Positions 9,607 to 61,981 of a DNA stretch of 64,000 nucleotides are shown piece after piece. The stretch's first letter is position 1; each line of letters starts with the position of its first letter. A program made the translations under genes and the position numbers. The notes under the pieces were generated by a model. The model had not been told where the DNA came from. It did not search any database and worked only from the letters and a program-made list of their open reading frames with translations. Origin of the DNA: Chiloscyllium plagiosum (Eukaryota); the NCBI RefSeq assembly GCF_004010195.1, contig NC_057746.1:2060324-2124323 (forward strand), read 5' to 3'.

Positions 9607-10659
9607 AGGATAGGAGGCGCCATTGCCTGCCCCTGCTTGCTCCCTGGAAGAGGAGGAAATATGGCAGTCTCTAGCGTCCACTTGATTGGACTAATCTAAC
9701 CTATGCCGTCACATCCTATGGTGTGGTGATGGAATGACCTAAGCGAGGAGATGAGCATCTAAAATCTGGACTTAGGCTGTTGTCAGGAGCAACCATTTAA
9801 TGCATGCCTTTACAAACTATAAAATGGCTTTTTAATGCAAGTAACATGAAGTAACGTAACAAAATGGCTTCTGGGGGAAAATCAACAATTTTGTTTATAA
9901 TGGCATCTAACTCTGCTGAAAATTGCATTCCTGAACTACTTGAAAGAGATTAGCAAACAATGCCCTGTTCATAGTATGAATTAACTAAGTAAGACATGAC
10001 ATTATTAAAATATGGATGAAGAATGCCATTCTCACACTAGAAATCTCTGTCAAACATTAACTAGGGGAACTGAGACAGTGATAGGGTTAGTGAGATTTTA
10101 AGTCAGTTATGACAATGACAAATTTAAATCTGCTGCTGATCTGCTGCTTAAAGTCACCTCCATTTCACCGGTCAGTATCTCAAGCTTCAAGAAACCCATG
10201 TTGCTCCAGACGTGTTTGCAGCAACTTGGATTTTAAACAATATCCAATGTGGTATCTAAAATGGCCCCTGACCTCACACCTTTATTTATATATAATGACA
10301 TCAGTGGTCACATAAGTATAGGAAGTCACAGTGAATAAAAGAATATATTCAACATCCCTCTTTATATAAAGGAAAAAAGATAGCTTCCACTATTCTTTGT
10401 AAGCTACTCCACATATGTAGCCCATAATGGAAATTATCATACATTAAATAAAAAAACTTTGATTTTTCTGGTCTATTCCAATTTTGTCTATCAGATATTA
10501 CACAATTTTTAAAGCATTTAGAACGTCTTATGGTATGCACACAAGTTTCTTTGGCAGTTCATCTGGTTCCTGAAGTAACTCTGTCTTTTTGTGGAATGTT
10601 GCTTTTGCTGTGGCCAATGATCTACTGCATTTGTTGGGGAATTGTTTGGCTCTGTCCCT

Positions 10660-11039: not shown

Positions 11040-11600
11040 GATGCCTGCTGTGAAGGAACAACATCACTGATTTCATGTCTGTGGTCGTGATGATACATCT
11101 AATTGTTCACTTGCACTATGTAAAATTAAGATTCTTCAAATGGTCCCAAGTGAGTTGACTTTTGTTCAATGCATTGAATGCTTGTACTCTGACCAGCTCT
11201 CCAACTCTTCGCTCTGACAATTAGTTGGGAGCTTTATCAAATTGACATTTGGCTTTCTGTTGTTTTACTTTGAACTTGTGACACATTCCTGGTCTATTTC
11301 AGTAGTACTTTAGCTGTTGGGTGTGATATGACTGGACAACTTTCCAAGCAACTAGTTGGCCTTTTTCTCCATTCCAAGACTGCCTTGAACACATCTTGGC
11401 TGGGTTTGAGTTGTTTTTTTAAATGATCCACATGGCAATTTTCACTGCTTTCTCAGTCTTCTCATTCGACAAGAGATAACATTCAGATGATTGCATGCAT
11501 AATGCTGAATTTCCCAATTATTCCTACTTCTTGTGGCTGAAGAAACTATCCCAGAGACACATATCTCGTATAAACAGGAGTTTCCATACATTTTGATTCT
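11040..11600 (-). mobile_element. Gypsy integrase C-terminal remnant, paralogous to ~24950-25400
   Basis: Reverse complement contains TTTGATAAAGCT...AGAGTTGGAGAG...CATTCAATGCATTGAACAAAA, matching 25210-25280. Confidence 0.55.
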
Positions 11601-12619
11601 TTCTTTGGGTGTTGTTTGGTGTTCTAATTAAATGGCCTGTTTAGAATGATTGGCCAATTGGTAGGAGAGCCAGCAGCTGATGGTCAGATTCCATCAGAAA
11701 CCTGGCTTGAGAGACCAAACGCTTTGTCTCCTTTTTGCTCACCATGGTGATCAATCACTGAACATACTTACAAGAGGCTGCTAATGTACTTTTAACAAAA
11801 AAAAGTTTAATGCACACAAAGGAAAAACACAAATTATATTACACTATCAATTACTTGAAATGATCTTAACACGAATATATAAAAAAAATTCAACACCAAC
11901 AGATCTCAGTAAATAGTCATCTCTGTCCCCATAATAAAGCTCCTTATTCAGCTGACACGGCTGTAAGAAATTCTTTTTGGCAAATTTCTGCATTCATTCA
12001 ATGCTATTTTCTTTAGTTAAGGTCTCTTCCTGAGATCCTTCACCAAGCTACTAACACAGCTCACTTACTACCTAACATGTGTTCCTTAAACTCATGTTTT
12101 CAACAGCTTTCTGCTTCTGGCTTTTTATTTTAAGCAACATAGGACTCCTTCCTTCTGCCCTGACTGTTTAGTGACGGCTAAACTAGCCTCACCCATGGTG
12201 TTAAAAACCTGACCTTGCTGACTAAACTGGCTCCTATCTGAATGGACTTTCTTCTGTGACTATCTTCTATCTCCAGGTTGTAGACATCAAGTCAGCAAAC
12301 ACTGGCACAATTAACGTCCGGGGATCTTGCTTGTCATTTTTAAAAAATTGTTTGAATACTTGGAAATGCTTTCACTTTAGCGATTGTTCAAGATGACTTT
12401 CTGACTTCCTAAAAAGGCAGATCTTATCAGAAATGAAAATTATAATTCATTTTTCTGCTTCCTTCAAACCCAAATTTCCAAGTAATAATATATTATGAAC
12501 CTTCATCACACTACTTTCTCTTTCTTTTCTTTCTCCCACTCAGGCGCTGGTCAAAAAGTTCACCATCAAAGACAATAGTCAGAATCACTCTCTTGATCTG
12601 AGAATAGCATAATTTAATT

Positions 12620-12845
12620 TGTGTTAAACTCTGGATGCAAACACAACTGGTTGTTCTTCCTGTTTGGAAGTCACTTCACATGTAGTTTCAGTGGCATCAC
12701 AGGCATCACCATCACACCTCAGCTTTGGTGTTCTCGTCACTTGTTTGATGTGAGTAAAAGATGCCACATCCTTCACAGCTCGCTTGTGTAGAAGTATATG
12801 CCCCCTGATAACACACTGTGGAAGAACTTGGCTACGTAGTTCTAG
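12620..12845 (-). mobile_element. Gypsy RT-end/RNase H remnant directly 3' of the ZNF-A decayed fingers
   Basis: HIKQVTRTPKLRCDGDACDATETTCEVTSKQEEQPVVFASRV resembles the Gypsy RNase H motif CDASxxGLGxxLxQxxxPVAFASR; paralogous to 21860-22130. Confidence 0.7.
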
Positions 12846-13056
12846 TTCACTGATGTTATGGTAGGTGCAGCAACTTTGTGAAGGCTTTATTACAGAAATC
12901 ACACTGATTGGGTTTCTCCAATGTGAATGTGTTGATGGACCGGGAGATACGCTGTTTGAAAGGCTTGTTACACAATCACATCTGAGTGGTTTCTCAACAG
13001 TGTCAACAGGTCGAAGACATCACAAAATCTTCATCACAAACTTCACTCCAAAAGGG

Positions 13057-13824
13057 TTATTTATCTGTGTGGATCCTTAGATGAAGAAGAAGGATCGATG
13101 ACCGTGAGAATGATTTTTCACAGACACTGCACTTGAATGGTTTCTCCCCTGTGTGAATGCATTTGTGTCTGCGGAGATTTGATGACCCAGAGAATGATTT
13201 CTCGCACACGTTGCATGTGAATGGCTTCTCCCCTGTGTGAGTACGTTGATGTATGCGAAGGGTGGCTGACTCCGAGAATGATTTATTGCACATCTCGCAC
13301 TTGAATGGTTTCTCCCCAGTATGAATGCGTTGGTGTACGCGGAGGGCTGATGTCCACGAGAATGACTTGTCACATACATCGCACTTGAATGGTTTGTACT
13401 CTGTATGGACAGGCTGATGGACCAAGAGTTTTGAAAATTTTGTGAAGGCTTTGTCACACGTATTACATTTGAATGGTTTCCCCCCAGTGTGAGTGCACTT
13501 GTGTGCATAGAGAGTTGATGACTGTGAGAATGATTTGTCACACAACTCACACATAAATGGTTTCTCGCCTGTGTGAATGCGCTGGTGTCTATGAAGACTT
13601 GATGACTGTGAGAATGATTTGCAACATACCTCACATGTGAATGGTTTCCCCCCTGTATGAATCCTATGATGTGTCAGGAGATTGGAAGCCTGGGTGAAAG
13701 CTGTGTCACAAACCTCACACATAAACGCTTTCTCCCCTGTGTGCTTTCTCTGGTGTCTCAGGAGGGTGGAAGATGTCACAAAAGCTTTATGACAAGCCTC
13801 ACACTTGAAGGGTTTCTTTTCCAT
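13057..13824 (-). CDS. C2H2 zinc-finger-only protein, 9 fingers (ZNF-A)
   Basis: 255-aa ORF with 9 CxxC-x12-HxxxH repeats and TGEKP-type linkers, starting MEKKPFKC; decayed fingers continue at 12845-13056. Exon 1 appears deleted, so it may be a pseudogene. Confidence 0.85.
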   Translation of the reverse strand: MEKKPFKCEACHKAFVTSSTLLRHQRKHTGEKAFMCEVCDTAFTQASNLLTHHRIHTGGKPFTCEVCCKSFSQSSSLHRHQRIHTGEKPFMCELCDKSFSQSSTLYAHKCTHTGGKPFKCNTCDKAFTKFSKLLVHQPVHTEYKPFKCDVCDKSFSWTSALRVHQRIHTGEKPFKCEMCNKSFSESATLRIHQRTHTGEKPFTCNVCEKSFSGSSNLRRHKCIHTGEKPFKCSVCEKSFSRSSILLLHLRIHTDK

Positions 13825-15109
13825 AATGCTGCATGTGTGTTGCAGATCTTACAGAAGGTACGCCTTATGGTTCAAGAGATCTTATGACCCTGTAGAGTTT
13901 TCCTCACACACCTCACACTTGAACAGTCCCTCCATTGTAGGAATGAGTCAGTGGTTCATGAAGCTAGCTGAATGAATGTAGCTGTCACCATACTTGGAGC
14001 CACTCACACTTCTTCCCAGCCTCACCCTGACCAATCACCCACAGCCAAACCTTCAGAAAGGTTGGTTCTGATGGAAGGCTGCACACCACTGACCAGTTTC
14101 AGATCTGATGATATGTCAAGTTCCCCAGACCCAACCAATTTCCAGATGATAATTTTAACTGCCCAAACTTCTCCATGTTGAGCAATGCTGTGAAGGGACT
14201 GGATGTCTTCCAACAGTTGTGCAGTTGTTCCATGGGTGACAGTCAGGATCTATCTGCAGTGTCTATCCTCTCTGTATTCTCTGGTGTAGTACAATGTAAT
14301 CCTTCTGTAAAACAGGAAAAGTAAACATGATTTCCTCCAACTGCCACTCGTTATTTGCTGAAGTGGTTGATTCTTCAGTTCGAGACTGTTCCACAGTATG
14401 TGTTAGTCTGCTACTCCCCAAGTGGGAGTATGCAAGTTTTTTCTATTTCCTCACTTGACTGTCACATATCCTCTGTTGTGAGCATGGACATGGGATATTG
14501 ACCAGGATTAGACAATATGGCTACTTTGTTTCCTCTGTCCAAACAGCATTTTCCAAGGCACTGTGTAGGCAATGGAAAAGACAGTTAAGTGGAGTGTAAA
14601 ATGGGATATCAATTTACTATGAACCCGTGTTGTGCTGGAGTAGTCCTGTTTTACCTTTACAGTATGTACTTAAGATAATACAAACTGAGGAGACATATTG
14701 GTTAGTGGAGATATTGATTTCTCCTCCTTCTTTTCCAAACTTATTTTGCTCAGGAAGTATAAAAAAACTGAGGAAAATATTTCTTCAGTGTAACAGATTG
14801 AAGGGTTCTGGTTTATACACTGTGTTCACGCAGTCTGCACATTTCCAAATTCAGATTTCAGCCTCAGTACTGGGCAAAACTATCAAAGCTAAGCCTTGAC
14901 TTTTGGGAAAAGCCAAGGCCAACAGGTATAATAGTTAAAGAAGGCATTAAAACACAATTCAATGGATATTGTGCATTCAAACTTTGCTCCTTCACTCAGC
15001 ACCTCCTCATTTTGTTTTCTGCTGAAAGAAAGTGAAGTTTCAGCAGAAAAAGGAGACAAATGAGTAGAGTAGGAGTTCAACTATTCCCCATATTTATTCA
15101 CATTTTAGA

Positions 15110-16230
15110 CTTTAGGATAGGAAACCAGATCTTCAAATTTGTTGGTGATACAAAATGGACAGTGGTGGAAGCAACATGCATAGAGACATAAAATTACAAA
15201 GAGAAATTGATGGTTTAAGGAATTGGACAACACTGTGGCAAATAAATTCCTATGTCAGCACTTTGCACTGACAAATAATACAACAAGGTACTGTATAAAT
15301 GGTGAAAAACAAGACACAGTGGATGTTCAAAGCAACTTCAAGACTCAGGCACAAAGATCATTAAAATGTCATGAACAGGGTGAAAAAATAATCAAGAAGA
15401 CTCATTGAATGCTGGCCTTTTCAAACTGAGGACAAGAATACAAAGGGCTAGTCTTCATATTTCAATTATGCGAAGCTATGCCTTGACTACACTAAGAATA
15501 TTGAGAGCAGTTCTGGGTAACGCACAAAAGGAAGAAGATGTTAGTCTTAGAGGGAGTGTAGTGTAGATTTACTAGAATAATCGCTGGATTGTACATGGTT
15601 GAATTAGGTTAAAAAAAATCACACAACACCAGATTATAGTCCAATAGGTTTATTTGGAAGTACTAAACCATGACACTATGATCTTGTGCTCTAAATTCTG
15701 TGTCTTATAATCCTACCCCATGAGCTAACTGACGAAGGAGCAGCACTCTGAAAGCTAGTACTTTCAAATAAACCTGTTGGACTGTAACCTGGTGTTGTGT
15801 GATTTTTAACTTTGAAAACTCCAGTCCAACACCGGCATCTCCACTGGTTAAATTATGAAGAGGGATGAAACAAACTTGGGTTATAATCCCCAGATTTAAG
15901 AACGTAAAGTGTTCAATATGTTAAGAGGAAGAAACAAGATGAATGTAGATAAACTATTTTCACTGGGTGGATCATTCAGGACCAGGCACATGCTGTAAAA
16001 AATTTGACCTAGATCTTTTCAGAAGTGAAACAAGGAAATATTGAGTCACCAATGGTGGGGGAAGATTGGAACTCACTTCCACTTAAGAAATCAATTGTTA
16101 ATAGTAAATATAAGATTTTTGTTTCATAAAATTTTGTATGGATCTGGAAAAGGGAGGAATATGGAGTTCAATTACAGATGCACCATGATCTCACTGAATG
16201 GTGGAACATATTCAAGTCACTAAATGGTAC
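15110..16230 (+). mobile_element. Old CR1 LINE RT/3' remnant in the ZNF-A intron
   Basis: Decayed KFxxDTK, LEYxxQFW and LExVxxRFT motifs in the order of CR1 ORF2. Confidence 0.6.
15605..15845 (+). mobile_element. Penelope-like fold-back fragment with hammerhead core
   Basis: Inverted arms AAAATCACACAACACCAG... / ...CTGGTGTTGTGTGATTTT; CTGACGA-AGGAGCAGCACTCT-GAAA at 15729-15753; flanked by TGGTT(G/A)AATTA direct repeats. Confidence 0.75.
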
Positions 16231-16369
16231 AGCCCTAAAGCTATGTACTGACCCTCAAAAGAAGCAGCTCTCCTTCTGTACTGTCTCTCTGACAGGGCAA
16301 CCTTCGATTCGAGAAACTGTACAGAGACCACAAGATAATACCCAGCTCCCAACACAGACATAATGTGAC

Positions 16370-16676
16370 AATAGGAAATCAGTGCGAATCCTCAGGCACT
16401 CTGCACCACCCAGATCATTACACTTCACATATTCAGGAATGAGCCATCAACAAAACTCAGCCTGGAAATCAGAGGGAAATGCTGCCAATAAACACACTCA
16501 ATGTTCAACACACAGCTCCAGTCAAACAGTTCAGCACAAAGCACCGAGTAAACAGCTCTCTCAGCTGGATCTTCTCACACAGCATAAGGGACATTTCCAC
16601 CCCAGATTGCCCACAGGATAGTCAGACTGCCTGAAGATTGGTGTGGATATTATGGGATACAATTTGTATAAAAGCT
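16370..16676 (-). repeat. Conserved ZNF 5'/intron-1 module, copy 1 (truncated by Tx1)
   Basis: Near-identical inverted match to 17892-18205 and direct match to 39420-39730. Confidence 0.9.
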
Positions 16677-17604
16677 TTTTTTTATTTCAAAAATATACTT
16701 TATTCATAAAATAATTTGATGGTCTGTACAATTGGTCATGCCATACTTATGTAAACATGTACATACAGAGATCAGAATTTATCATTTTTATATAGGTCTG
16801 TACATTTTTCTATCATATGCCCATATAATTAGCTGAGGCGTCAGCAGAGCCCAAATGACTGCATGGGCCCCCTGTTCTTTGTTAGGCAGGCAGACTTTAC
16901 ACAGTGGTCTTTCCCCACTGCGCCTTGGCGGCAGCTGCCCCAAGCTTCAGCGCGTCCCTCAACACGTAGTCCTGGACCTTGGAATGTGCCAGTCTGCAAC
17001 ACTCAGTCGGGGTCAACTCCTTCAGCTAGAAGATCAGCAGGTTTCGGACCACCCAGAGAGCGTCCTTCACTGAGTTGATGATCCTCCAGGCACAGTTGAT
17101 GTTCGTCTCGGTGTGCGTCCCGTGGAACAGGCCGTAGAGCACGGAGTCCCGCGTCACGGCGCTGCTCGGGACGAACCTCGACAAACACCACTGCATTCCT
17201 CTCCAGACTTCCTCTGCATAGGCACATTCCAGAAGGAGGTGTGTGACAGTCTCATCCCCCCCACAGCTGCTTCGATGGCAGCGTGCAGTGCGGCTGAGAG
17301 TCTGGGCGTGCACAGAGGATCTCACAGGCAGAGCCCTTCTCACCACCAGCCAAGCCATGTCTTGGTGCTTGTTGGAAAGTTCTGAAGATGGCCCGGGTGA
17401 CTGCAGCGGCACAGGTTCTGGGAATAGGTTCTGGGTATAATAGCAATGACAGTGCCTCACACCTGATGACCAGGTTTTTTCCCGCAATGGAGAGCAGCCA
17501 TAGCTTCCATCTGCCCAGTTTCTGCCTCACTTTGCTGAATCGCTCCTCCCAAGACTTGGCGCACGCCCCAGCCCCCCCCCCGAACCAAATACCCAGCACC
17601 TTCA
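16677..17604 (-). mobile_element. 5'-truncated, internally deleted L1/Tx1-clade LINE
   Basis: Minus-strand LKVLGIWFG...LSIAGKNLVIRCE..., ELSNKHQDMAWLVVRRALPVR, C-x4-C-GGDETVTHLLLEC (zf-RVT) and WRIINSVKDALW; A-rich tail appears as the T-run at 16676. Confidence 0.85.
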
Positions 17605-17626
17605 GAAATATGTGGATTGATTGTGA

Positions 17627-17762
17627 TGTGGAGGTGTCGGTGTTGGACTGTGATGGACAAAGTCAAAAATCACACGACACCAGCTTATAGTCCAATAAGT
17701 TTATTTGGAAGCACTAGCCTTCAGAGCGCTGCTCCTTCTTCACGTAGCTAACTGACGAAGGA
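17627..17762 (-). mobile_element. Penelope-like terminal repeat fragment with a 13-bp TSD, inserted in the ZNF-B promoter
   Basis: Flanked by GGATTGATTGTGA (17614-17626) and GGATTGGCTGTGA (17763-17775); the ZNF-C paralog carries this sequence only once. Confidence 0.8.
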
Positions 17763-17883
17763 GGATTGGCTGTGAGAGACTTCAATCAGAGAGCCCACCC
17801 ACTCTGCCCATTGTCTCCTTTTCCTCTTCCAGAGCTGGTTCACTTCCTATAGGGACTGAAAACCAAGTGAGGAGATGGTGAGT
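17763..17883 (+). promoter_or_regulatory. Putative promoter and first exon of ZNF-B, ending ATG|GTGAGT
   Basis: CCAAT-like boxes (ATTGG, CAATCAG), pyrimidine-rich start region, Ets-like CACTTCCT, ATG at 17875-17877 followed by a consensus donor; matching acceptor TTTCCTTTTCCTGTTTTACAG ends at 19702; conserved in ZNF-C. Confidence 0.6.
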
Positions 17884-17891
17884 GAAGGAGC

Positions 17892-18205
17892 AGCTTTTAT
17901 ACAAATTGTATCCCATAATATCCACACCAATCTTCAGGCAGTCTGACTATCCTGTGGGTAATCAGGGGTGGAAATGTCCCTTATGCTGTGTGAGAAGATC
18001 CAGCTGAGAGAGCTGTTTACTCGGTGCTTTGTGCTGAACTGTGTGACTGGAGCTGTGTGTTGGATATTGAGTGTATTTATTGGAAGCAGTTCACCTTTAA
18101 ATGTTCAGGCTGAGTTTTGTTGATGGCTCATTCCTGAATAGGAGAAGGTGAGGTGTAATTATCTGTGTGGTGCAAAGTGTCTGAGGATTATTAGTGATTT
18201 CTTAT
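17892..18205 (+). repeat. Conserved ZNF 5'/intron-1 module, copy 2
   Basis: Inverted repeat of 16370-16676 and of 39420-39730. Confidence 0.9.
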
Positions 18206-18494
18206 TGTTGAGTTCTAAGTTTATTCTGTTTATTAGTCTGTGAATGTTACACGGTCAGTTCTCTGTGTTGATATGTTTGAATATTTCCCATCTTTTCAAT
18301 CCTTCCAAGACCTCCAAATACCCTGTCTCTATGACATCCCCAGAAAAGAAAGACAGACTTGCATTCATGCAGAATTAATTGTGGAAAACAAAAACGATAA
18401 AATGAACAGAATGTGTGGGTACTTTGACTGACATCTCTTAAAACTAATCAAAATATTTCTGGAGCTATATGAGTTTCTTGAAGCTTGTGAAACT

Positions 18495-18685
18495 GAGAGA
18501 GAGTTGCACTGTCTGAATGGGGTAACCGAGGGAGAGCCACACTGTCAAAATGGTGTTACTGAAGGAGAGCTGTACAATCAGGTGTCACTGAGGAAGGACT
18601 TGGCAGTCTGATGGGGGACACTGAGGCTGGGTTGCACTGTCAGATGGAGGGACACCAGGGGTGAACTGCACTCTGAGAGGAATGG
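18495..18685 (+). repeat. Degenerate ~30-bp minisatellite
   Basis: About six units resembling ACTGAGGGAGAGCTGCACTGTCAGATGG. Confidence 0.5.
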
Positions 18686-18779
18686 CAGGCAAAAGTGAAC
18701 CTAATCATCTCCCCATGACATAGTGAAATTTCAACAATCAATGTTCTGGGTATAACAGTTGTCCAGTAGCAGAATTGAA

Positions 18780-19340
18780 CCAGCCATATAAATACTGTGG
18801 CTATAACTGTAGGTGAATAACACACCTCTAATTACCCCAAAGCCTGTCCGCCATCTATAAAGCACAAGTTAGGCATGTGATAGAATATTCTCCACTTGCT
18901 TGGATGAGTGTAGTCTCAACAGTACTCATGAAGCTTGACACCATCCAGGACAAGACAGCCTACTTGACTGTCACTCATCCACCACCGCCAACATTCACTC
19001 CGTTCTTTAGGACACACACTGGTAGCAGTGTATACCATCCACAAAATATACTTCAGTAGATCACCGTGGCTGCTTCAACAGCACCTTTCAAATCTAGCTT
19101 CTAACAACGAGAAGGACAAGGGCAACAGATGTCAGCACAAAATACCTGGGAGCTCCATTCCAACATCAGACTATCTGACTTGGAACTATATCATTGTGCC
19201 CTGACTATTAGTAGGGAAAATTCCTGGAACTCCTTTCCTTACAGCATTGTGGGTCTAACTTACCAATACTCCTCCCTTACCCCACCCCAAGAAAGCAGTT
19301 CATGACAACCTTCTCCAGAGCAGTTAGAGGTAGGTGATAA
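18780..19340 (+). mobile_element. Old CR1/L2-group LINE 3' remnant
   Basis: YKAQVRHVIEYSPLAWMS...KLDTIQDK is an RT C-terminal motif; related pieces lie on the minus strand at 32240-32710 and 35980-36700. Confidence 0.6.
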
Positions 19341-19349
19341 TTACTGAAG

Positions 19350-19577
19350 ACAAAAATTGCTGGAAATCATAGTGGGTCAGGCAACATCTGTGGGAGGGTG
19401 GGGAAGAGAGAGAGAGAGAGCTCATGTTTCATGTCTAGATGACTCTTCATCAGAACAGAGTCACCTAGACTTGAAATGTTAGCTTGCTTTCTCTCCACAG
19501 ATGCTACCTGATCTGTCATGATTTTCAGCACAGTTTGTTTTCAGTGCACATTCCAGCATCTGCAGTAATTTGCTCCT
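19350..19577. mobile_element. Small Penelope-like fold-back element
   Basis: Inverted arms around a minus-strand CTGATGA...GAAA core (19427-19453); flanked by GGTGATAA-like direct repeats. Confidence 0.6.
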
Positions 19578-20142
19578 ACAGTGGGTGATAAGTGTTGGCC
19601 TGGGCAGTGATGCCCATATCATCTGAAAATATATCGAAAGAGTTAGCCTTTTCAGCAAAGAAGGAGAAGGAGGAAATCATGTTTCCTTTTCCTGTTTTAC
19701 AGAAGGATTGCCCCGTACAACACAAAAGAGGACAGACAATCCAGATAGATTCTGACACTGACCCAAAGAACAACTGCTTAACTGTGGGAAGATATCCAGG
19801 TCCTTTCGCAGCATTGCTCAACACTGGAGACTGAAATCATGATATGGAAATCAGTTGGGTGAGGGGAGCTTCAGTATATTATCTGATCTGAAAATGGTCA
19901 GTGGTGTGGAGCCTAACCTGCCCAAATGTTTAGCTGTGGGTGATTGGTCAGAGTGAGGCTGGGAAGAATTGCGAGTGGGTTCCAAGAGTGGTGAGAGCTT
20001 AAATCATTCATTGAGCCTCATGAACCAGTGATTTGTCCTTGCAGGTTCAAGCTGTTCAAGTGAGAGATGTTTGAGGAGAATTCTACAGGCTCATACGATA
20101 AGGTGCATCTGTTAGAAACACTGCTAATACACAGACAGCTAT

Positions 20143-21594
20143 ATGGAAGAGAGACTGTTTAAATGTGAGGTCTGTGACCAAGGTTTTACCAAGTCATCAA
20201 TGCTTGTGAACCACCAACACATCCACACAGGGAAGAAACCATTTATATGTAAAGTGTGCAGCAAATCATTCTCAGATTCATCAACCCTGCGCAGACATCT
20301 ACGCATTCATACTGGGGAAAAGCCATTCATGTGCAAAGTGTGTAAAAAATCATTTTTGACATCATCAACCCTTTATAAACACCAACGCATTCACACACAG
20401 GAGAGACCATTCAGATGTAAGGTATGTGACAAATCATTCTCATGGTCAGAGAATCTCTGGAGACACCAACGCATCCACACAGGGGAGAAATTATATAAGT
20501 GTGAGGTGTGTCACAAATCATTCTCTGACTCATCAAGACTTCTGCTCCACCAGAGGATTCACACAGGGGAGAAACCATTCGCGTGCAAGGTGTGTAACAA
20601 ATCATTCTCAGTGTCATCGCGCCTCCAAGTACACCAACGCATTCACACAGGCGAGAAACCATTCACATGTGAGGTGTGCAACAAAGCATTCTCAAATTCA
20701 TCACATCTGCGTGTACACCAACGCATTCACACAGGGGAGAAGCCATTTTCGTGCGAGGTGTGCAACAAATCATTCTCATCATCATCGGAGCTCCGTGTAC
20801 ACCAGCGAATTCACACAGGGGAGAAACCATTTGCATGTGAGGTGTGTGACAAATCTTTCTCGCAGTCAGAGAACCTCCGCACACACAAACGCATTCACAC
20901 AGGGGAGAAACCATTCGGATGTGAGGTGTGCAACAAGTCATTCTCACAGTTAGGGAACCTCCGCACACACCAACGGATTCACACAGGGGAAAAACTATTC
21001 AAATGTGAGGTGTGTGACAAATCATTTGCAGACTCATCAAGACTCCTGCTTCATCAGAGAAGTCACACAGGGGAGAAACCATTCACATGTGACATATGTA
21101 ACAAAGCATTCTCGGTGTTATCAACCCTCCACAAACATCGAAATGTTCACATAGCAGAGAAACCATTCAGGTGCAATGTATGTGACAAATCATTCTCGGA
21201 TTCATCATACCTGCGCAGACACCAACGTGTTCACACAGGGGAAAAACCATTCACGTGTGATGTGTGTGACAAATCATTTTCAAGGTCATGCAACCTGCTG
21301 CTACATCAGAGGATTCACACAGGGGCAAAGCCATTCACTTGTGAAGTATGTGACAAATCATTTTCTTCATCGTCAAACCTCCGTGTACACCAACGCACCC
21401 ACACAGGGGAGAAACCTTTTATGTGCAAGGTGTGTAACAAATCATTTTCTGAGTCAGGGATCCTCCGCAAACACCAACGTATTCACACAGGGGAGAAACC
21501 ATTCATCTGCAAGATATGTGACAAATCATTCTCACGATCAGACAGTCTCCACAGACACCAACGCACTCACACAGGAGAAACCATTCATGCATGA
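20143..21594 (+). CDS. C2H2 zinc-finger-only protein, 17 fingers (ZNF-B)
   Basis: 483-aa ORF starting MEERLFKC with 17 intact fingers; it ends by a frameshift in the next linker (TGETIHA*), and decayed fingers continue to ~21855. Confidence 0.92.
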   Translation: MEERLFKCEVCDQGFTKSSMLVNHQHIHTGKKPFICKVCSKSFSDSSTLRRHLRIHTGEKPFMCKVCKKSFLTSSTLYKHQRIHTQERPFRCKVCDKSFSWSENLWRHQRIHTGEKLYKCEVCHKSFSDSSRLLLHQRIHTGEKPFACKVCNKSFSVSSRLQVHQRIHTGEKPFTCEVCNKAFSNSSHLRVHQRIHTGEKPFSCEVCNKSFSSSSELRVHQRIHTGEKPFACEVCDKSFSQSENLRTHKRIHTGEKPFGCEVCNKSFSQLGNLRTHQRIHTGEKLFKCEVCDKSFADSSRLLLHQRSHTGEKPFTCDICNKAFSVLSTLHKHRNVHIAEKPFRCNVCDKSFSDSSYLRRHQRVHTGEKPFTCDVCDKSFSRSCNLLLHQRIHTGAKPFTCEVCDKSFSSSSNLRVHQRTHTGEKPFMCKVCNKSFSESGILRKHQRIHTGEKPFICKICDKSFSRSDSLHRHQRTHTGETIHA

Positions 21595-21859
21595 TATATG
21601 CAACAAGTTAGTCTTGAGCTCATGGGACACCTGCTCTATCAGATGATCCACACAGGAAAGTAACCATTCAAATGTGAGGTTTGTGATCAACCACCACAGA
21701 ATTTGCAGAGGGAGAAATTTTTCAGGTGTGATGTTTGTGACAAACCTTTTCAACAGTCACTGCATTTCCAAGTCCATCAACCTTGTCAAAAAGGTGAGAA
21801 TAATGGTGTGAGGTCTATAACAAAGCTGTTGTTGAATCTCCTAGTACATCAGTGAACTC

Positions 21860-22400
21860 ATATGAGGACTGCCTGAGAAAGTTCTTCACAGTCTGTCCTC
21901 ATAATTGTTTACCTGTACACAGTCTCATTCTGCAGGATGTTCAGTGGGACTGGGACACAGAACAAGAAGCAACTTTCACTCCCATCAAACATCTAGTGAC
22001 GACATCATCAGTACTGAGGGATTATAATGTCAATAATGGAGTCACACTGCAGTGTGATGTCAGTGAAACAGGACTTGGAGTAACCCCCAGGCAGTGAGGA
22101 CAACCCGTTGTGTTTGTGTCCAGAGCATTAATAAACTGAACAACACTGCACAGTTTAAGGAAGATAGATGGGATGTTGTTTTTGCTCATGAACTTTTAAG
22201 CCAGTGCCTGTTTGTAGAGTTTGACCACCATCAAATTCAAACCTCCTTTCTCAAACTACCTCAACCTGCTCATGCAAAGGATGTGATTTTGCTTTTAAAA
22301 ATATCATTTGGAAGTGAAGTGCAAGCAAGGGAAGAATATGAACATCACTGACATTTTGCTGAGAGCTGTACCCTCTGTGAAAAAAGTTGATTGTACAGTG
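21860..22400 (+). mobile_element. Gypsy RT-end/RNase H remnant directly 3' of the ZNF-B decayed fingers
   Basis: LQDVQWDWDTEQEATFTPIKHLVTTSSVLRDYNVNNGVTLQCDVSETGLGV..Q*GQPVVFVSRAL, later GKNMNITDILLRA. Confidence 0.8.
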
Positions 22401-22409
22401 TGTAAAATC

Positions 22410-23688
22410 TTCTTAGAGATAGTCAGCATGGCTTTGTGTATGGGAAATAGTGTGTCACAAACCCTGATTGAGGTTTTTGAGGATTTGACCAAGAAGATAG
22501 ATGAGGGCAGAGTGGTAGATGTTGTCTACATGGACGTCAACAAAGCCTTTGACATGGTTGCGCGTGGTAGGCTGGTTAGTAAAGTTAGATCACATGGGAT
22601 TCAGGGAAAGCTTGCCAACTGGATACAAAATTGGCTTGACAGAGGATGCTGACAGAGGGTTGTTTTTCGGACTGGAGGCCTGTGACCAGCAGTGTTCCTC
22701 AGGGTTCAGTGCTGCGTCCACTGTTATTTGTTAATCATATGGATGATTTGAATCAGAATATTGAAGAGTGGTTAGTAAGTTGATAAATTACATCAAAAGT
22801 AGTGGTATAGTAGACAGTGAAGGAAGTATTCTAAGAGTACAAAGGGATATTGATCAATTGGGCCAATAGATCGAGGAGTGGCAGATGGAATTTAACTTAG
22901 ATAAATGAAGGTGTTGTATCTTGGTAAGACAAACAAGGGCAGAACTTATACAGTTAATGGTAAGGCCCTGGGGAATGTTGTTGAACAGAGAGACCAAGAG
23001 GTTCAGGTATATCGTTCCTTGAAATTTGCATCACAGGTAGTCAGGGTGGTAAAGGCAACATTTGGCACACCATTGCTCAGACCATTAAGTATAGGAGTTG
23101 GGATTTTGGGACTGTTGCGTTTTTACAGGACATTGGTTAGGCAACATTTGGAGTACGTATACAGTTCTGGTCACCCTGCTATAGGATGGATATTATTAAA
23201 TTAGAGAGGATGCAGAAAAGATTCACAAAGGTGTTACTGGGACTGACAGGTTTGAGTTATAAGTAGGGGCTCGATCGGCTAGGATTTTTTTCACTGGAGC
23301 ATATGGGGTTGAGGGGTGACCTTATAGAAGTTTATAAAATCATGAGGGGTACAGATATGGTGAATAGCAAAGATAGTTTCCGTTGGGTAGTGGAAACTCA
23401 AAACTAGAGGGCATCATTTTAAAATGAGAGGAGAAAGATTTAAAAGGAACCTGAGGGGCAACATTTTCACACAAAGGATGGTTTGTATGTGGAATGAACT
23501 GCCAGAGGAAGTGATAGGTGCAAGTATGGTTACAACAGTTAAAAGACATTTGATCAGGTACGTGAATACCAAAGGGTATGGGCCAAACACAGGCAAATGG
23601 GAATAGTTTAGTCTGGGAAATCTGGTTGACATGGATGAGTTGGACCAAAGGGTCTGGTTCTCTGCTGTGTGACTCTATGACTATGACG
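22410..23688 (+). mobile_element. CR1 (HER1-like) LINE 3' ~1.3 kb, inserted in the Gypsy remnant
   Basis: LIEVFEDLTKKIDEGRVVDVVYMDVNKAFD...WIQNWL, VPQGSVL and FFTQRMVCMWNELPEEV motifs; tail GACTCTATGACTATGAC. Confidence 0.9.
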
Positions 23689-24329
23689 CTATTCAACTAA
23701 AAGAAACAGTATGATATTGACTCAGCTTTCCCAGTTTCTAGATTGTTGAGGCAATGACACCACGACATTTGCTAATGCTCAGGAAGCTTAAGTTTCTGAC
23801 AGGCCTTTCCTTGGCTCTGAAAACATCTGCAACCCTGATTTAGAGTCTGAGACTTCAGTCAGTTCTGATTACTTACCTAGGAAATGGTGGGCAAGCAAAA
23901 AAACAAATCTAACTCCTAACACCATACATCTGCAACCGGTCACTCACCTCCCACTCTCACTTCTGACCGCTTGACTGCCATCCTTGCATCCACCTTCCCA
24001 ACGCAGTTGAACCTGATCACATTACCTGACCTGACTTGACTAGCCTACACCTAAAATATTAACCAATCAATGCCCCAACACACCTAACTTCACCCACATC
24101 ACACCTTCCACCCTCCCCATCTACCACTGCACCCAATTAAATCATGAACACTGCCCACTTACCCGCCCTATTTCCAATCCATCTGTCTGTCCACATTGGT
24201 CATTTATCGATGGTAACTAGTGCTGTAAACAGGAGACATATCTTCACTGATTTTCTTCACTGCTGTGAGCATGGATTTCTGCACTGAGGGAGTGTTTTTG
24301 GCCAGAACAGTCATATCCAGGTAAATGGG

Positions 24330-25400
24330 TAGTTTTCTATCTGCTTCACATCGGACACAGGTTTTCCAATTCCAAACAGAAACTTTTGAATGAATTTGTT
24401 CAAATCAAGCAGACTTTTCCAACAAAATGCAACTCTTCAAATGTTACAGAAAGTTGTGATGAAATGATGGCTTGAAACTATCAAGAAACCCTTGTTACTG
24501 TAAGAGTATTGGACAGAGATGAGGTGATTGCCCGAGATGGCATCCTGTTCAAAGGGAGCAGGGTCATGATGCCTAAAGAGATGAGAAAAGAGATGCTGAA
24601 ACACATCCTACACAAATTATCGAGGAATTGAGTCTAGTCTAAGGAAGGTTACAGAAGTATTCTACTCTCCAAACATGAGCAATGAGATGAAGGACCACAT
24701 CAGCCAGTGCAGAGATCGTAACGAACATCAAACTAAATAAGATACAGAGCTGTTCTTACATCCCAAATAGCCCAGGGATGAAGCTTGGAGTAGAGCTCTT
24801 AACTCCCACTGGAACTGATTTTCTCATCACAGTCAACTACCATTCAAACTGTGCAGTGTTAAAGCAGCTGACATCAACGACTTTCTGAAGGAATACTTCA
24901 GTGGTCATGAAATTCCTGACATTATGAATGTCACGGTAATGACCTCAATTCACGAGTGAAGAATTCAGACACTTCCTGAATGATTGGAAAATTCAGCACA
25001 TCATCTGCACGCCAGTCAAATGGAAAGGCTGAGGCAGCAGGGAAAGAGGTGTGTTTAAGACAAACTTAGCACAGAATCTCACTTACTGGGACATGTTGTT
25101 ATCTAAGGTCATACTGAACCCAGACTATTCTTCCAATGGATAAATTATAGAGGCCAGAAGGTGTCATAGGAGTGAGTGATAAGATCAAAATGAAGTATTG
25201 GAAAAACAGTTTGATAAAGCTGTCACATTGTTGAGAATTGGAGAGTCAAAGTGCAAACATTCAATGCATTGAACAAAATCAGCATACTGGCAACTTGGAA
25301 CCCACAAGAGAGGAATTTTCACCCTGATCATGCATTGGAGAGTGAATGACTTGATCCATCACAGCAAATGCAGCCACCTATCTGCAACTAGTGAAGTGAC
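24330..25400 (+). mobile_element. Gypsy integrase remnant
   Basis: RDEVIARDGILFKGSRVMMPKEMRKEMLKHI...GIESSLRK...KDHISQC, PQFTSEEFRHFLNDWKIQH and QSNGKAE motifs. Confidence 0.8.
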
Positions 25401-25544
25401 GTGAGTGTGACTACCCTTGATATCAAGGCCAGATTTGACTGAAAGTTTCTTCAAAGAGCCGACAAAACTGGGAATCAGGGAAGACTTTCTACTGGTCTTC
25501 TCCTGACTATTGTTTGCAATTACTCTAAATAGTGTACAAAGGAG

Positions 25545-29859: not shown

Positions 29860-30585
29860 AGAGTTGATGACAGTGCAAATCCCTTTACATACCTCACACT
29901 TGAACAGTTTCGCTCCAGTGTGCATACATTGTTGAACGCAGAGACCCCCCTCCCCCCAAGTTCAAGAAGGTTTGGTCACACACCATTCATTTATAAAGTT
30001 TCTCCCAGTGTAAATTCTCTAGTGTATTAGCAGGTCAGAGGAGCAGGTAACATGATTTTCACACAGCTAACACATGAAGGACTTATCTCGTGTATGATCC
30101 TCTGGTGTATCAAGAATTCATAGAGGTTTTCCTTCAAATCTCACACTTGGACAGATCCTCCCAGTGACTGTGTATGGAGGTTCAATGACATTGAAGATCA
30201 TTCTTTGCATACCTCACAGTGAACAGTTTCTCTCCTTTGTAAATATGCCCGAACTTCACCAGGACTGGTGATTGTGCAAAGCCCTTGTTGCACACTTTAT
30301 AGCTTCTGCCCTGTGTGAATGAGTTGGCAATACTTAAGTATTGATGACATTGCAAAACTTCAGTTCTATACCTCACACTCAATGTTTTCTATTCCATGTA
30401 GGTGTCGTGTTCACAGTTGCACAACAGATGCATCTTATGTTTCGGAACTTGTACTGGGTGTACCACGACCTTGAATGTTGTGAGTCTTCTTTTTTAAAAC
30501 ACATCCAAGGAATCACATTCCACACTCATGTTATCAGTTTGAAAGCCTCTGAGGATGAAAATGCTATTCCTTCAGTAGAAATCTC
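29860..30585 (-). pseudogene. Decayed C2H2 ZNF paralog (ZNF-psi)
   Basis: Fragments KVCNKGFAQSPVLVKFGHIYKGEKLF, H*RIYTGRN and LFKCEVCKGFALSSTL with stops and frameshifts; a decayed copy of the family exon-2 acceptor sits at ~30560-30580. Confidence 0.8.
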
Positions 30586-30999
30586 AAGAAATTTGCTGTG
30601 ATAGATCAAGTCATTTATCAGGGAACTGAGACGGCAGCTGCAACAGGTGAGGCATTAATCAGATGGGCCAATGACAAATTTAAAACCTCATCTAATATCC
30701 AAGCTTCAGGAAACTCCAGAAATGTGTGGAGTAATTTGAAAACTAAACTATGTTGCTGTAGTGTGTAAAATGGTGACGGCCCTCAAAATGTTTATTTACA
30801 AATGATGCCTTATGCCTTCTTCACAATGTACTTTCTGATCTATCTTGGTTCTGGATTAGAGTGGTGCTGGAAAAGCACAGCAGTTCAGACAGCATCCAAG
30901 GAGCAGGAAAATCAACATTTCGGGCAAAAGCCCTTTATCAGTATGATCTATCTTGGTGTCATCTGTGAATTTAGCTCCCACACCTTTGCTCCCATCATC

Positions 31000-35744: not shown

Positions 35745-36789
35745 TTTCCAATTTGTCAATCATGTTATAGCAAATTTGTGTTAACAAAACATATGTTATA
35801 GCAGAACGACCATTTGACTTAAAGAGAAACTCTCACCAATTAAACAAAACGAAGACAATGAGGATTATGATGGTATACATTCCCTATTCTATACAAATAG
35901 GCAAGGATGTACCATAAAATTTCCTTGTATCTTCACAAGAAGTCATAACATAACAGAAACTAACTATAATAAGAAGGGTTTTTTAAAATTCATTCACTGG
36001 CTGAACAAGCATCTATTACCTATCATGAACTGAGAAAGTGGTGGTGAGCTGCTTTCGTGAACCAATGCGGTCCAGATGGTGAATGTATCCCCACAATGCC
36101 ATTCATGGGGGAAATGCAGGATTTTGACCCAGTGATATATTTCCAGGTCAAGATGGTGAGTGGCTCTAGAGAGTTTATTTTTATTGTTTGATGGAAAGTG
36201 TCACTAGCTCAGCCAGCATTTATTGCTTATATCTGATTGCACAGAAGACAGTTAAGAATCAGCTACTGTGCAGTTGTATGTCAATCATTTGAATGCAAGA
36301 CTAGGATGGTAGTTTACTTCCCTCAATGAAATTAGTAAACCAGTTGCATTTTTACAACAATCGCTTCTATTCTTAATTCCAGATTTTTATTGAATTCAAA
36401 TTTCACCATCTACATGTTGGGTTTCAAACGGAGGTCCCAGAACATAAGCCTGAGGTACTGGATCACTAGTCCAGTGACATTACAACTGTGCTCATGCCTT
36501 CCCATAACTCACAGGGGAAACTGCAGGTAGTAGTGTTCCCAAATGGTAGGAACTATGGGTTTGAAAGATGCTAAGTAACCTTGGTGAACTTCTATATACA
36601 TCTTGTAGATGGTACACACTGTGGTTGTACATCAATGGCAGAGCCAAAGAATGTTTGAGCACGTGGCCTCAATTATTCAGACTACTTTGCCTGAGATGCT
36701 GGCATGCTTCTTTATTGTTCTGCAGGAGAAGGAGGGGAAACAATCCTGATACACACCATGGCAGAAAAGACTCCTGTGTCTGTTCACTG

Positions 36790-37350
36790 TTCCAGTAGGT
36801 CTAACAACTGTGTGAAGGCTTTATGATGGGGCTCCCACACCAAACGGGTTTCTCCCCATGTGAGTGCATTCATGGACCAGGATGTACACAGACTTTGTGA
36901 ACGCCTTGTCTCATGAATGCTTTTTTCCTACAGGGATCCTCTCATATCTTATGAGAGTTGAATACTTCAGGAAAACTTTATCTTAAATCTCAGACTTGGA
37001 TGATTTCTCTTTGTGGCGATTTTCTCAGACAGGAAGCTTCAATGAGCTTGTTGAGGATTTGTCACGCACTTTATCTAGTTTCTCTTCAGTGTGAGTATGC
37101 CAAAGATACATCAGGCCTGATGAGAGTGTGCAAAGCTTTTGTTAACAAATTCACACTAAAACAGCTTCTCGCCTGTATGAATGCATTGGTGATTCATGAG
37201 TGTTGCAAAGAGTGAAGACTCAGTCACACATCTCCCAATTCAATGGTTTCTCATCTGCATAAAACAGATGGTGTATCAGAAAGGGGGTCTTTCTTGTGAA
37301 GCCTTCAACACAGACCTCACAGCTTTTCCTCAATGTGGATGTATCGGTTT
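36790..37350 (-). pseudogene. Decayed zinc fingers 3' of the ZNF-C stop codon
   Basis: HQCIHTGEKLF, LVHECTHMGRN and other finger remnants with stops and frameshifts. Confidence 0.75.
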
Positions 37351-38046
37351 CTAAGGAGCATTACTGACTGTGTGAATACGACGGTGATCCAACATGCCCC
37401 ATAACTGTTCAAACTCCTTATTACACACCTCACATGTGAATATTTTCTTCTCGCCTGTGTGAACGCGGCGGTGACTCACCAGGCCTGGCAATTGCGCAAA
37501 TCCCTTATTACACACCTCACATTTGAATGGCTTCTCCCCAGTGTGAAGACGTTGGTGTTCACGTAGAGTTGATGACTGAGAGAATGATTTCTTGCAGACC
37601 TCACACTTGAATGGTTTCACCCCAGTGTGAATACGTTGATGTGTCCGGAAGTGAGAGGAGCGTGAGAATGATTTGTTGCACACCTGACACCTGAAGGGTT
37701 TCTCCCCGGTATGGATGCTCTGATGTTCCAGGAGCCTTGTAGATGTCGGAAAGGCCTTATCACAAACTTCACATTTGAAGGGTTTCTCCCCCGTGTGGAT
37801 GGTCTGATGGACCAGGAGGCTCGATAACTGTGTGAAGGCTTTGTCACACACTTCACATCTAAATGGCTTCTCCCCTGTGTGGATACGTTGGTGAACACGG
37901 AGGGTCACTGACTGCGAGAATGATTTGTCACAAACATCACAGGTAAATGGTTTCTCACCTGTGTGGGTGCGTTGGTGTACGAGAAAGTGAGATGAGCATG
38001 AGAATGATTTGTTGCACACCTCACACTTGAATGGTTTATCTTCCAT
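37351..38046 (-). CDS. C2H2 zinc-finger-only protein, 8 fingers (ZNF-C)
   Basis: 231-aa ORF starting MEDKPFKC with 8 intact fingers; exon-2 acceptor AG at 38475-38476. Confidence 0.9.
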   Translation of the reverse strand: MEDKPFKCEVCNKSFSCSSHFLVHQRTHTGEKPFTCDVCDKSFSQSVTLRVHQRIHTGEKPFRCEVCDKAFTQLSSLLVHQTIHTGEKPFKCEVCDKAFPTSTRLLEHQSIHTGEKPFRCQVCNKSFSRSSHFRTHQRIHTGVKPFKCEVCKKSFSQSSTLREHQRLHTGEKPFKCEVCNKGFAQLPGLVSHRRVHTGEKKIFTCEVCNKEFEQLWGMLDHRRIHTVSNAP

Positions 38047-38951
38047 TGAACTGGCCTTTTGTTAACTGCACTTTGTATATTATAAGGTCTTATGAGCCTG
38101 TAGAGACTACCTCACATGAACAGCCTCTCATCTTCAGGAATGATTCAGGGATTCATGAGACTTGATGAATGTTTGGAGTTCTTACTACACTTGGAGCCAC
38201 TCACACTTTTCCCAGTCTCAGCCTGACTGATCACTCACAGCCAAACCCTTGAAAAGGTTGGTTTTGATGGAATGCTCCATACCACTGACCAGTTCAAATC
38301 TGATGATATGTCAAACCTGCAGTGACCCAACCAAATCCCAATTTCTCTGGGTTGAGAATGCTGGAAGGGGACTGGAATGTGTTCCAACAGTTGTGCAGTT
38401 GTTCTTGGATGATGATCAGGATCTACCTGCAGTGTCTAGCCTCTTTGTATTCTCTGGTGTACAATGCAATCCTTCTGCAAAATAGGAAAAGGAAACATGA
38501 GTTCCACCACCTCCCTCTTCTCCTTTGTTAAAGAAGCTTACTGTTCATTCAGAGACTGTTCCACAGTGAGTGCCAGTCTGCTATTCCCTGGTGTAGGCGG
38601 ATCAGATACAAGTCCTTTTTCCAGCAGGAGGAATATTAATTCAGTGGAGACTTTAAAGTTTCTCCCCTTGTTTTTCAAAATTATTTGAGGAAAGCACACT
38701 GGACAACGTGCAAGAAGCTGGGGAAAAGTTTGCTTCAGTATAGCTGATTAAAAGGTTCTGGTTTATCCTGGGAAATTAGATACACTTGCACTCACTCAGT
38801 CTGCAAATTTAGCTGTCAGCCACAGCACTAGGCAAAACTATCAAATCCAAGCCCAGGCTTTTTGAAAAGTGCAGGAATATGAAATTAGGTGCATTGTGAT
38901 CTTGCTGAATAATAGAACATACTCAAGGCACTGAACAGCTTCAGTTAGTCT

Positions 38952-39287: not shown

Positions 39288-39419
39288 TGTACCACCTGCT
39301 TTGAACAGACAACACTCCTTCAATCTTTCCAAAAATCCTCATTTCCTCAGAGGAACTTTCAAAATTAAAATCCACAGGATAATAATCAGTTTCCAACTTA
39401 CACATAGACAACTGAACAA

Positions 39420-39870
39420 TAGGAAATAAGCAAGAATCCTCAGACACTCTGCACCTCCCAGATAATTACACATCACCTTCTCATATTCCGGAATGAGCCA
39501 TCAACAAAACTCAGCCTGGAAATCAGAGGGAAATGTTTTCAATAAACACACTCAATATCCAACACACAGCTCCAGTCACACAGTTCAGCACAAAGCACCA
39601 AGTTAACAGCTCTCTCAGCTGGATCTTTTCACACAGCATAAGGGACATTTCCACCCCTGACTGCCCACAGGATAGTCAGACTGCCTGAAGATTGGTGTGG
39701 ATATTATGGAATACAATTTGTATAAAAGCTGCTCCTTCACTCACCATCTCCTCACTTGGTTTTCAGTCCCTATAGGAAGTGAACCAGCTCTGGAAGAGGA
39801 AGAGGAGACAATGCGCAGAGTGGGTGAGCTCTCTGATTGACGTCTCTCACAGTCAATCCACATATTTCTG
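39420..39870 (-). promoter_or_regulatory. Conserved ZNF 5' module, complete copy 3 (putative promoter, exon 1 ending ATG|GTGAGT, intron-1 start) of ZNF-C
   Basis: On the minus strand, ATG at 39747-39745 and donor at 39744-39739; CRE/CCAAT-like GACGTCAATCAG and TGCGCA upstream; matches 17604-18205. Confidence 0.7.
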
Positions 39871-41721
39871 GAGCAACATGCGTTTCATGAAGGTTGAGTG
39901 AAAATAAAATCGCACTTGTTGCAGCTGCTGATTCGGTTTCCAATATAAATGTTTGACAGATGTTTAGTGTGGGAATAGCATTCCTCATTCTTGGAGGCTT
40001 TCAAACTGACAATAGCATGGGATCTGTTTCTTCGAATGTGTATGACAGCAAATCAGAAGAGGAAGATCCACAGCATCTCGGCAGTAATGACATGCAATGG
40101 TGGGACGAATACCTGCACAGGAGGGATGAATACATGAGGGAAATGCGTACAAAAGGGAAAAAAACACTATAACTTTCACAAAACACCCGTATTGGACTGA
40201 CGACTTGCGTACTTCAAAATTGTGCTCCAGTACACCAGTGCCTTCATTTGTTTATTTCCATCTCGGCATGGGAGAAAGGGTCATAGCAGCGAGTGACTCA
40301 AGGCGGAGGAATGACACAGGCAGGAAGATATGAGACGGGGGAACACTGGAGAACCATTGGGACTGGGGGGGGGGGGGTGACTCAGTGACTTAGAGATTGT
40401 CTGTTGGGTGACCAATGCTGAAAAACTAAAATAAGGGAAACTTCAACCAAGGAACCTAAGATTGGTGCTTGTGAGAGGGTGTCACTGCTGGTGAGAGTTG
40501 AGAGGCTGTGAGAGAGAGATGTTCGGTTTTGGTGTGAGTGGAAGGGTTGTGAAAGACAAGAATTCAGTGCTGATGAGAATGGAGAGCTCCTGGCATGTGG
40601 GACAGTGCAGATATAAGCAGGGCGAACCAAGAGAGTGGGAAACTAAGTTGGGTCAGTGTTTGGGGAGTGACTCTTGCAACTCAGGAAGTTAATTTAGGAG
40701 CTGGACAGTAAGTCTGTGATTCAGGGAATAGACTTGTGTTTGTGAAGTACTACAGGATAGATTCTGTTCTTTGGAGTTGATACTGTTCTCAGAGAGTAAT
40801 ACAATGCCTTGTGCAGCAACTGTACACACGCTCCTGGCATTTACTCTGTGCCTGGGAGTGACCGTGAATCAGAGATTGACTCTAGGATAATCAACACTGA
40901 GGAAACAGGGGGACATCTGAACTCTGGGAGGAGTCTTCCTGGTGAGGGTGTTCAGTGGTGAAAGCTCAGGAACCATGCTGATGAGTGTAGGAAGGCTGTG
41001 CAGGGGAGAACAGAGGGGTGTGTTCTCCAATAAAAGAAAGAGCTGCCCAACATCTCAACTCATTTCTGTTGAAGGGTTATCTTGACCCAATACTTCATTT
41101 GTTTCTCTCCACAGGTGACCAGCTCAGCATTTCCAGCACATTTTGTTTTTATTTTAGATTTTAAAGCACAGAAATAGATCATTGGCCTAACTGATTTCAC
41201 TTGATGCTTCCGCTCCACATGAGCTTTCTCCCTCCATATCATCTCTCACCCTCTCAGCGGATCCTTCTATGCCATTCACCCTCATAGACCTACCCAGTTT
41301 CCCATCAAATGTATTCAATTTTATTCCTCAACCATTTCCAATGGAAGCAAGTTCAACATTTTTATCATTCTATTAGTGAAGACATTTCTTCTGAATTCCT
41401 AATTGGATTTATTATTTACCATTTCATACTGATGGACTCCAGTTTTGAACTCTCCACATAAATAAGAAATATCTCTCCATTTATCTGAAAGTTCTTGATA
41501 GACGATGGGAAGCTGTACGGGGGAGCATTGGAATGGTGTACTTGAGTCTAGAAGTAACAACAACATGAATGAGAATTTCATCAACAAGTGGACCGACAGG
41601 GGGAAGAAGGGTGGAGAGGAGAAGATAGTGGTTGTTGGGAATGTTTGATGTTACAGAGGGGGAAATAGGTCGTCTTTGTGATAGAGAGAACATGGGGTCA
41701 GAAGCTCAGCTGATGCAAATA

Positions 41722-61978: not shown

Positions 61979-61981
61979 GAC

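Follow-up and report, generated by a model that had tools for sequence, protein, structure and literature searches.

A near-identical 220-bp island in a decayed Gypsy remnant behind the zinc-finger genes of one Chiloscyllium plagiosum cluster

The Helitron-derived ISX dosage-compensation sites of Drosophila miranda are young, were spread by transposition and have a known binder, as described in the accessible parts of two reports (PMC4384637; PMC6598467). Tandem KRAB-ZNF and FiNZ-ZNF clusters are large assemblies of multi-finger C2H2 zinc-finger (ZNF) genes lying among transposable elements (TEs) and immune genes (PMC10547256); the portion of that source open to us contains no occurrence of shark, Gypsy, UTR (untranslated region) or gene conversion. 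For sharks and rays, zinc-finger genes near MHC-Ia-like genes (MHC, major histocompatibility complex) have been suggested, in the available excerpt, to inhibit recombination (PMC10751288). Here we describe a 64,000-nt window of the C. plagiosum genome (C37:2060324-2124323, within a genome of 3.56 Gb; coordinates below are window positions unless another sequence is named) in which the finger arrays of two genes, ZNF-A and ZNF-B, are followed by a dead remnant of Ty3/Gypsy pol. The subject of this report is one short stretch of that remnant, the 3′ island, whose core is nearly the same in dozens of paralogs of a single gene cluster.

A homogenised island in the Gypsy remnant

Along the remnant, identity to the ZNF-B copy climbs from ~0.7 to 0.83-0.98 between positions 21920 and 22140. 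Median pairwise identity among 35 copies is 0.933 in this core, as against 0.672 in the 150 nt before it and 0.685 in the 200 nt after it; the leader of the finger exon gives 0.796 (31 copies). About 220 bp of the ~2-kb remnant is homogenised among paralogs, and this near-identical island, absent from the account that an earlier sequence-only reading of the window had given, is the main feature of the locus. Individual pairs of cores differ at 0.4-15% of positions. Because 29 of the 35 cores carry a 1-nt gap, the island is non-coding; with its frames broken and its core gapped in this way, the remnant is not the conserved open frame of a domesticated Gypsy-derived gene. The core gave no Rfam match above chance and no stable fold (z 0.33 and -0.67), and a literature search of open texts without supplements found no description of a ZNF-linked Gypsy island.

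A 661-nt junction query returned 45 matches, 41 of them on C37 (40 of 170 candidates were scored). At 28 of the 30 loci fetched, fingers lie upstream on the same strand, at least four of them in 26 loci, and fingers on the opposite strand were found at none. A 29-mer from the core matched the genome 43 times, 37 times exactly: 40 matches fall on C37 at 1.65-5.96 Mb, three on small contigs and none on other chromosomes, and a control had no match. The ZNF-Gypsy unit occurs at about 40-50 loci of one finger-only ZNF cluster that spans C37 from 1.6 to 6.0 Mb. The duplicated chimera proposed by the sequence-only reading is thus real, but these searches do not confine it to two genes. The integrase query also had 19 matches on other chromosomes. 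The ten of these dispersed relatives that were fetched all lack same-strand fingers; their Gypsy parts share ~59-67% identity, so that the Gypsy family appears old and dead. A second organism, ~4% diverged, likewise has the core in multiple copies.

As that reading had claimed, the decayed fingers of ZNF-A and ZNF-B are continued directly by same-strand Gypsy pol sequence, and DNA, Pfam and pol alignments confirm it. Just past the ZNF-B junction, Pfam recognises RT_RNaseH_2 (PF17919, E 3.5e-9; RT, reverse transcriptase), and Integrase_H2C2 (PF17921) gives a weak match, below the cut-off, in 24252-25499 (E 0.0018). Intact pol proteins align to the ZNF-B remnant from 21852-21873 onward, at 26-45% identity and in the domain order RT C-terminus, RNase H, integrase. 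The ZNF-A remnant, which has no Pfam match, was recognised by its DNA similarity to ZNF-B and a weak tblastn match. The fingers are not separated from the remnant by any gag, protease or RT core; in the ZNF loci, resemblance to a dispersed relative sets in at the core or just ahead of it. In ZNF-C, the same decayed finger is present as described, but the supposed absence of Gypsy sequence does not hold, given a short junction stub; this gene has probably lost its Gypsy part.

Exchange between copies at two islands

Variants are shared among the cores as a mosaic, the pattern reported for conversion between TE copies in the accessible text of earlier studies (PMC6598467; PMC4384637). The core has 15 informative sites, and all four gametes occur in 80 of the 105 site pairs, 43 of which have each gamete in at least two copies; one transversion splits the copies 18 to 17. 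The tree of the flanks is nearly a star (one of 28 inner branches strong, median end branch 0.24). On this weak tree, and without a shuffled control, six core variants with 10, 5, 14, 10, 10 and 13 carriers require 10, 5, 12, 8, 6 and 7 changes, respectively; for four of the six this comes close to a separate change in every carrier. Rare changes per 20 core columns (35, 22, 15, 12, 9, 11, 6, 13, 20, 22 and 41) describe a smooth U with its minimum in mid-core. Shuffled variants combined with the lowest divergence at the island centre point to non-allelic gene conversion, which very probably homogenises the island. Two deletion junctions on C37, at L037 (near 2134531) and L038 (near 2141145), fuse 5′ pieces, either the first 57 nt of the promoter island or part of the leader, to half a 3′ core.

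A second identity island of the same shape overlies the presumed promoter. This 5′ island is CpG-poor, has about 110 copies, nearly all of those listed being on C37, and is 92-96% identical in the best 40 loci. Across 17763-18082, 1.5-4.4% of letters deviate in 24 copies, versus 25-49% outside its shoulders, and four gametes were found in 103 of 136 site pairs. Part of the 5′ island is intron, which makes a cDNA intermediate in the copying unlikely.

Just upstream of the promoters lies an arm of ~345 bp, and the 3′ tail that follows the Gypsy remnant holds it again in inverted orientation (window 10014-10333 and 39903-40123; 7052-7395 of L047 as oriented). All of its best 40 matches fall in the cluster or on small contigs, and 7 of 16 tail stretches hold AATAAA, a candidate poly(A) signal. 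In ZNF-A, a piece of a long interspersed nuclear element (LINE; zf-RVT) at 16680-17620 takes the place of the beginning of the 5′ island, and some of that stretch recurs at 74% identity in the ZNF-A intron, at 14985-15073. We considered whether the promoter island is a long terminal repeat (LTR) and ruled this out: none of the ten dispersed Gypsy relatives matches the presumed promoter region, and 3′ of the integrase this region does not occur a second time in full length. No LTR pair was found around the unit. A DNA-transposon-like unit with terminal inverted repeats was likewise rejected, as the inverted arms fade outward without sharp ends; target duplications were not searched.

Selection, neutral exchange and other explanations

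On balance, we lean towards the reading that ongoing conversion keeps the island near-identical and that selection on a candidate cis-regulatory site probably contributes. The course of events would be as follows. Very likely, a single ancestral Gypsy insertion, trimmed at its 5′ end, came to lie behind a ZNF stop codon, was amplified together with the ZNF genes of the cluster and had its island homogenised by conversion between paralogs. Like the 5′ island, the 3′ island may be an open site, resembling a promoter or bound by protein. Such a site could attract breaks or selection that hold the island above the homology threshold, and copies losing part of it would drop out of exchange and then decay. 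Where vertebrates lack PRDM9-directed recombination, breaks fall on promoter-like sites that are stable, and a partial PRDM9 is present in some cartilaginous fish, according to the accessible part of PMC5519329; an open, promoter-like 3′ island would accordingly be a plausible seed for conversion.

The case for selection turns on substitution rates. Under unbiased conversion, the long-term substitution rate stays neutral. We set aside a projection-based rate test as biased and used a direct pairwise test instead, in which the branch length of the ZNF core is 0.174 versus 0.232 for eight dispersed relatives; three integrase pieces give 0.249/0.212, 0.181/0.179 and 0.230/0.210. Seven of the eight dispersed copies are nearer to ZNF cores than to one another, and the same count for the three integrase pieces is 1, 5 and 0 of 10. 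Subtracting integrase from core in a multiple alignment gives -0.116 (sd 0.038), and a single bootstrap replicate out of 200 reached zero or more, although this test may favour many near-identical copies and probably inflates the gap somewhat; the gap is smaller in the pairwise test.

That inflation is one of several points that weigh against selection. The core is GC-richer than the dispersed copies (0.474 vs 0.414), and strong-to-weak changes fall from ~21% to 12% in it without a fall in weak-to-strong changes, a combination in which GC-biased conversion could mimic constraint. Within the core, changes follow nearly a Poisson distribution (mean 0.72, variance 0.83), and invariant motif blocks are lacking. 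Seven copies whose finger array is broken or absent keep their cores at a mean identity of 0.92-0.96, like intact genes, and six genes with 7-19 fingers retain integrase without a core, the sequence resuming at five or more different points; the ZNF-A core itself is decayed. The promoter motif has 110 matches, and a listed core lies within 25 kb of 26 of the 98 listed on C37. Among 20 core-less promoters sampled from 65, 12 lead to arrays of at least seven fingers; eight of these 12 intact genes have no Gypsy sequence and four have a truncated or decayed core (74-87%). With the island missing from intact genes such as these, the element is optional for a single gene.

An alternative is a purely neutral island, which we regard as possible though rather unlikely. 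The remnant would be a passenger with one stretch still exchanging among ~45 copies, perhaps at a GC-biased hot spot. In gene-conversion theory, exchange continues above a homology threshold and the rest diverges past it. The smooth U-shaped profile, the near-Poisson spread of changed sites, the shift in GC, the retention of cores in broken genes, their repeated loss from intact ones and the decay of truncated cores to 68-87% fit such a model. It accounts less well for a core lineage rate below that of the integrase, as unbiased conversion should leave the rate neutral, or for a reduction, again by about half, in the GC-neutral change classes (3.3 of 137 columns vs ~4.7%; small counts). The only other island found overlies the presumed promoter, and the 3′ island persisted while its flanks reached 0.28-0.40 changes per site, an estimate from the projection-based test set aside above.

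Transcript-like coverage bears on a further alternative. Two runs, guessed to be RNA, have contigs over the dead fingers, the LINE and the integrase of ZNF-B; depth is ~10-15 in X3, from organism B at about 3-4% divergence, and ~3 in X1 (near-identical). Read without a silent control stretch, this coverage through the integrase fits a long 3′ UTR of ZNF-B. In both organisms, summed contig depth is ~50-fold higher on the core than on the flanks. About ten raw single-cell RNA reads fall on the core, in both orientations and at a depth of 1-3.5, and none on adjacent unique bins. The array stop codon lies 82-1171 nt upstream of the Gypsy anchor in 32 copies, with the remnant on the sense strand. 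The island could thus be a shared target or source of Piwi-interacting or small interfering RNAs in the 3′ UTR, tuning dozens of ZNF mRNAs, and selection would then act on identity between paralogs. Reads in both orientations and the keeping of identity rather than structure agree with this, but a pile-up on the core is expected from summed paralogs and the library strand is ambiguous. Moreover, dispersed Gypsy relatives are 64-74% alike, and hence no matching active element was found; we consider small-RNA coupling improbable.

The sequence-only reading had also proposed that fingers replaced gag, protease and RT in an LTR element, or that the unit once encoded ZF-RNase H-integrase proteins. 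Same-strand orientation, an abrupt junction and a core scoring RT_RNaseH_2 at 37 bits speak for such a capture or fusion, which we nonetheless judge very unlikely. The stop codon precedes the junction by 266 nt in ZNF-B and ~210 nt in ZNF-A; the protein ends before the junction, so the "fusion" exists at the DNA level only. No finger lies in an open pol frame in any of 38 copies. The 32 copies with arrays of at least three fingers all carry further stops, and their finger and pol phases are spread evenly (12/8/12). Together with the broken cores, the absence of fused frames already contradicts a fusion for the living copies. No finger-pol fused protein scored among 24 database candidates, which is weak evidence. 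Of the 150 best protein matches, none exceeds 56% identity, and the top HMMER matches inspected were tandem-repeat proteins, one a Gypsy pol repeat. Nor are the units dispersed over several chromosomes: of 43 core matches, 40 lie on C37 and three on small contigs. The other option of that reading, an old insertion trimmed and co-duplicated as 3′ UTR, agrees with the RNA-like contigs over the ZNF-B remnant and the lack of a fused frame: the remnant is probably non-coding 3′ UTR that was co-duplicated with the genes. An assembly artefact, a single core pasted into many gaps, is scarcely credible even in an assembly of 101,977 contigs in which L015 (C101898) and L016 (C37 near 3127148) appear to be one locus present twice, because the cores differ from one another and the excess depth recurs in independent runs of two organisms.

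The window, its setting and related systems

The features of the window are collected below. The Pfam scan covered the three finger-bearing open reading frames (ORFs) of ZNF-A, -B and -C, and the matches listed are of finger type only. The insertion that interrupts the ZNF-B remnant is one that we take to be LINE-type; the frame tested had no Pfam match.

Table 1. Features of the ZNF-Gypsy units in the window.
Feature	Position	Strand	Remarks
Shared 3′ tail of unit	10014..10333	-	Holds inverted copy of promoter-upstream flank
ZNF-A integrase remnant	11040..11600	-	
ZNF-A Gypsy remnant	12530..12845	-	Degenerate island, 68% identity to ZNF-B, several deletions
ZNF-A finger-only ORF	13057..13848	-	263 aa, 9 fingers; ORF and Pfam
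ZNF-A 5′ island	16328..16676	-	First ~130 nt missing where LINE piece sits
ZNF-B 5′ island	17763..18120	+	Presumed promoter, exon 1 and start of intron 1; CCAAT-like words, putative splice donor near 17880
ZNF-B splice acceptor and untranslated leader of finger exon (putative)	19703..20127	+	~80% identical among paralogs
ZNF-B finger-only ORF	20128..21594	+	488 aa, 17 C2H2 fingers; ORF and Pfam
Decayed fingers 3′ of ZNF-B stop codon	21595..21860	+	
ZNF-B Gypsy pol remnant	21852..22410	+	RT C-terminus to RNase H, interrupted by stops and frameshifts; Pfam, pol protein alignment
3′ island, non-coding core	21922..22145	+	Median identity 93% (35 paralogs); divergence at its lowest near 22000-22060
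Insertion interrupting ZNF-B remnant	22410..23690	+	Presumably LINE-type
ZNF-B Gypsy integrase remnant	24330..25420	+	~70-77% identical among paralogs; Pfam (weak), DNA and pol alignment
ZNF-C last decayed finger and junction stub	36745..36790	-	Stub ~25-30 nt, no Gypsy beyond
ZNF-C finger-only ORF	37351..38061	-	236 aa, 8 fingers; ORF and Pfam
ZNF-C 5′ island	39366..39859	-	

A fourth ZNF array, wholly decayed, lies at 29860-30440 on the minus strand, with a piece of the shared tail just upstream of it at 30488-30800. The minus strand also carries, at 56709-62626, another Gypsy element, distinct from the remnants and younger; its direct repeats of 647 bp are 92% identical, and it has a weak SCAN match in gag and an RNase H. 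MHC class I matches both flank and interrupt the ZNF cluster: 29 of 50 are on C37, at 0.45-0.59, 5.74, 5.88 and 6.9 Mb and beyond. A search for the MHC class II family gave no match, and its control was likewise without signal.

The cluster offers an unusually clear short conversion island that survives among ~40 paralogs with 30% diverged flanks, and it tests whether such islands need selection. If the island is neutral, apparent ultraconservation among paralogs may arise without function, a caution for similar cases. If selection takes part, the cluster supplies one defined 220-bp candidate element together with natural controls in the form of intact, truncated, decayed and deleted islands. 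It is a doubtful further step that the dead pol fragment has been exapted as a family-wide 3′ control element, which with the 5′ island would give each ZNF gene two sequence-locked handles. Were this so, dozens of ZNFs without an effector could come under the joint control of one protein or one small-RNA pool, and the handles could drive entire finger cassettes of this MHC-linked cluster to be exchanged and rearranged. Either way, the case bears on the control and diversification of large ZNF families without KRAB or FiNZ domains.

The remnant shares with Ty3/Gypsy pol (PF17919, PF17921) the order of its domains; unlike an intact element, it has no gag, protease, RT core or LTR pair, and all its frames are broken. 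As in the KRAB-ZNF and FiNZ-ZNF clusters, large numbers of multi-finger C2H2 genes lie among TEs and immune genes (PMC10547256, as far as accessible), whereas the ORFs scanned here are finger-only. The zinc-finger arrays around shark and ray MHC-Ia-like genes, as portrayed in the available part of PMC10751288, likewise form a ZNF multigene cluster with MHC class I; in contrast to the inhibition of recombination suggested there, the present cluster shows signs of active exchange, at two islands in each gene. Similar in pattern are the ISX sites, which, in the parts of the reports open to us, are also TE-derived non-coding copies made mosaic by non-allelic conversion (PMC4384637; PMC6598467). 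Unlike them, the island described here derives from an old coding region of pol, has spread by gene duplication and is a candidate regulatory site.

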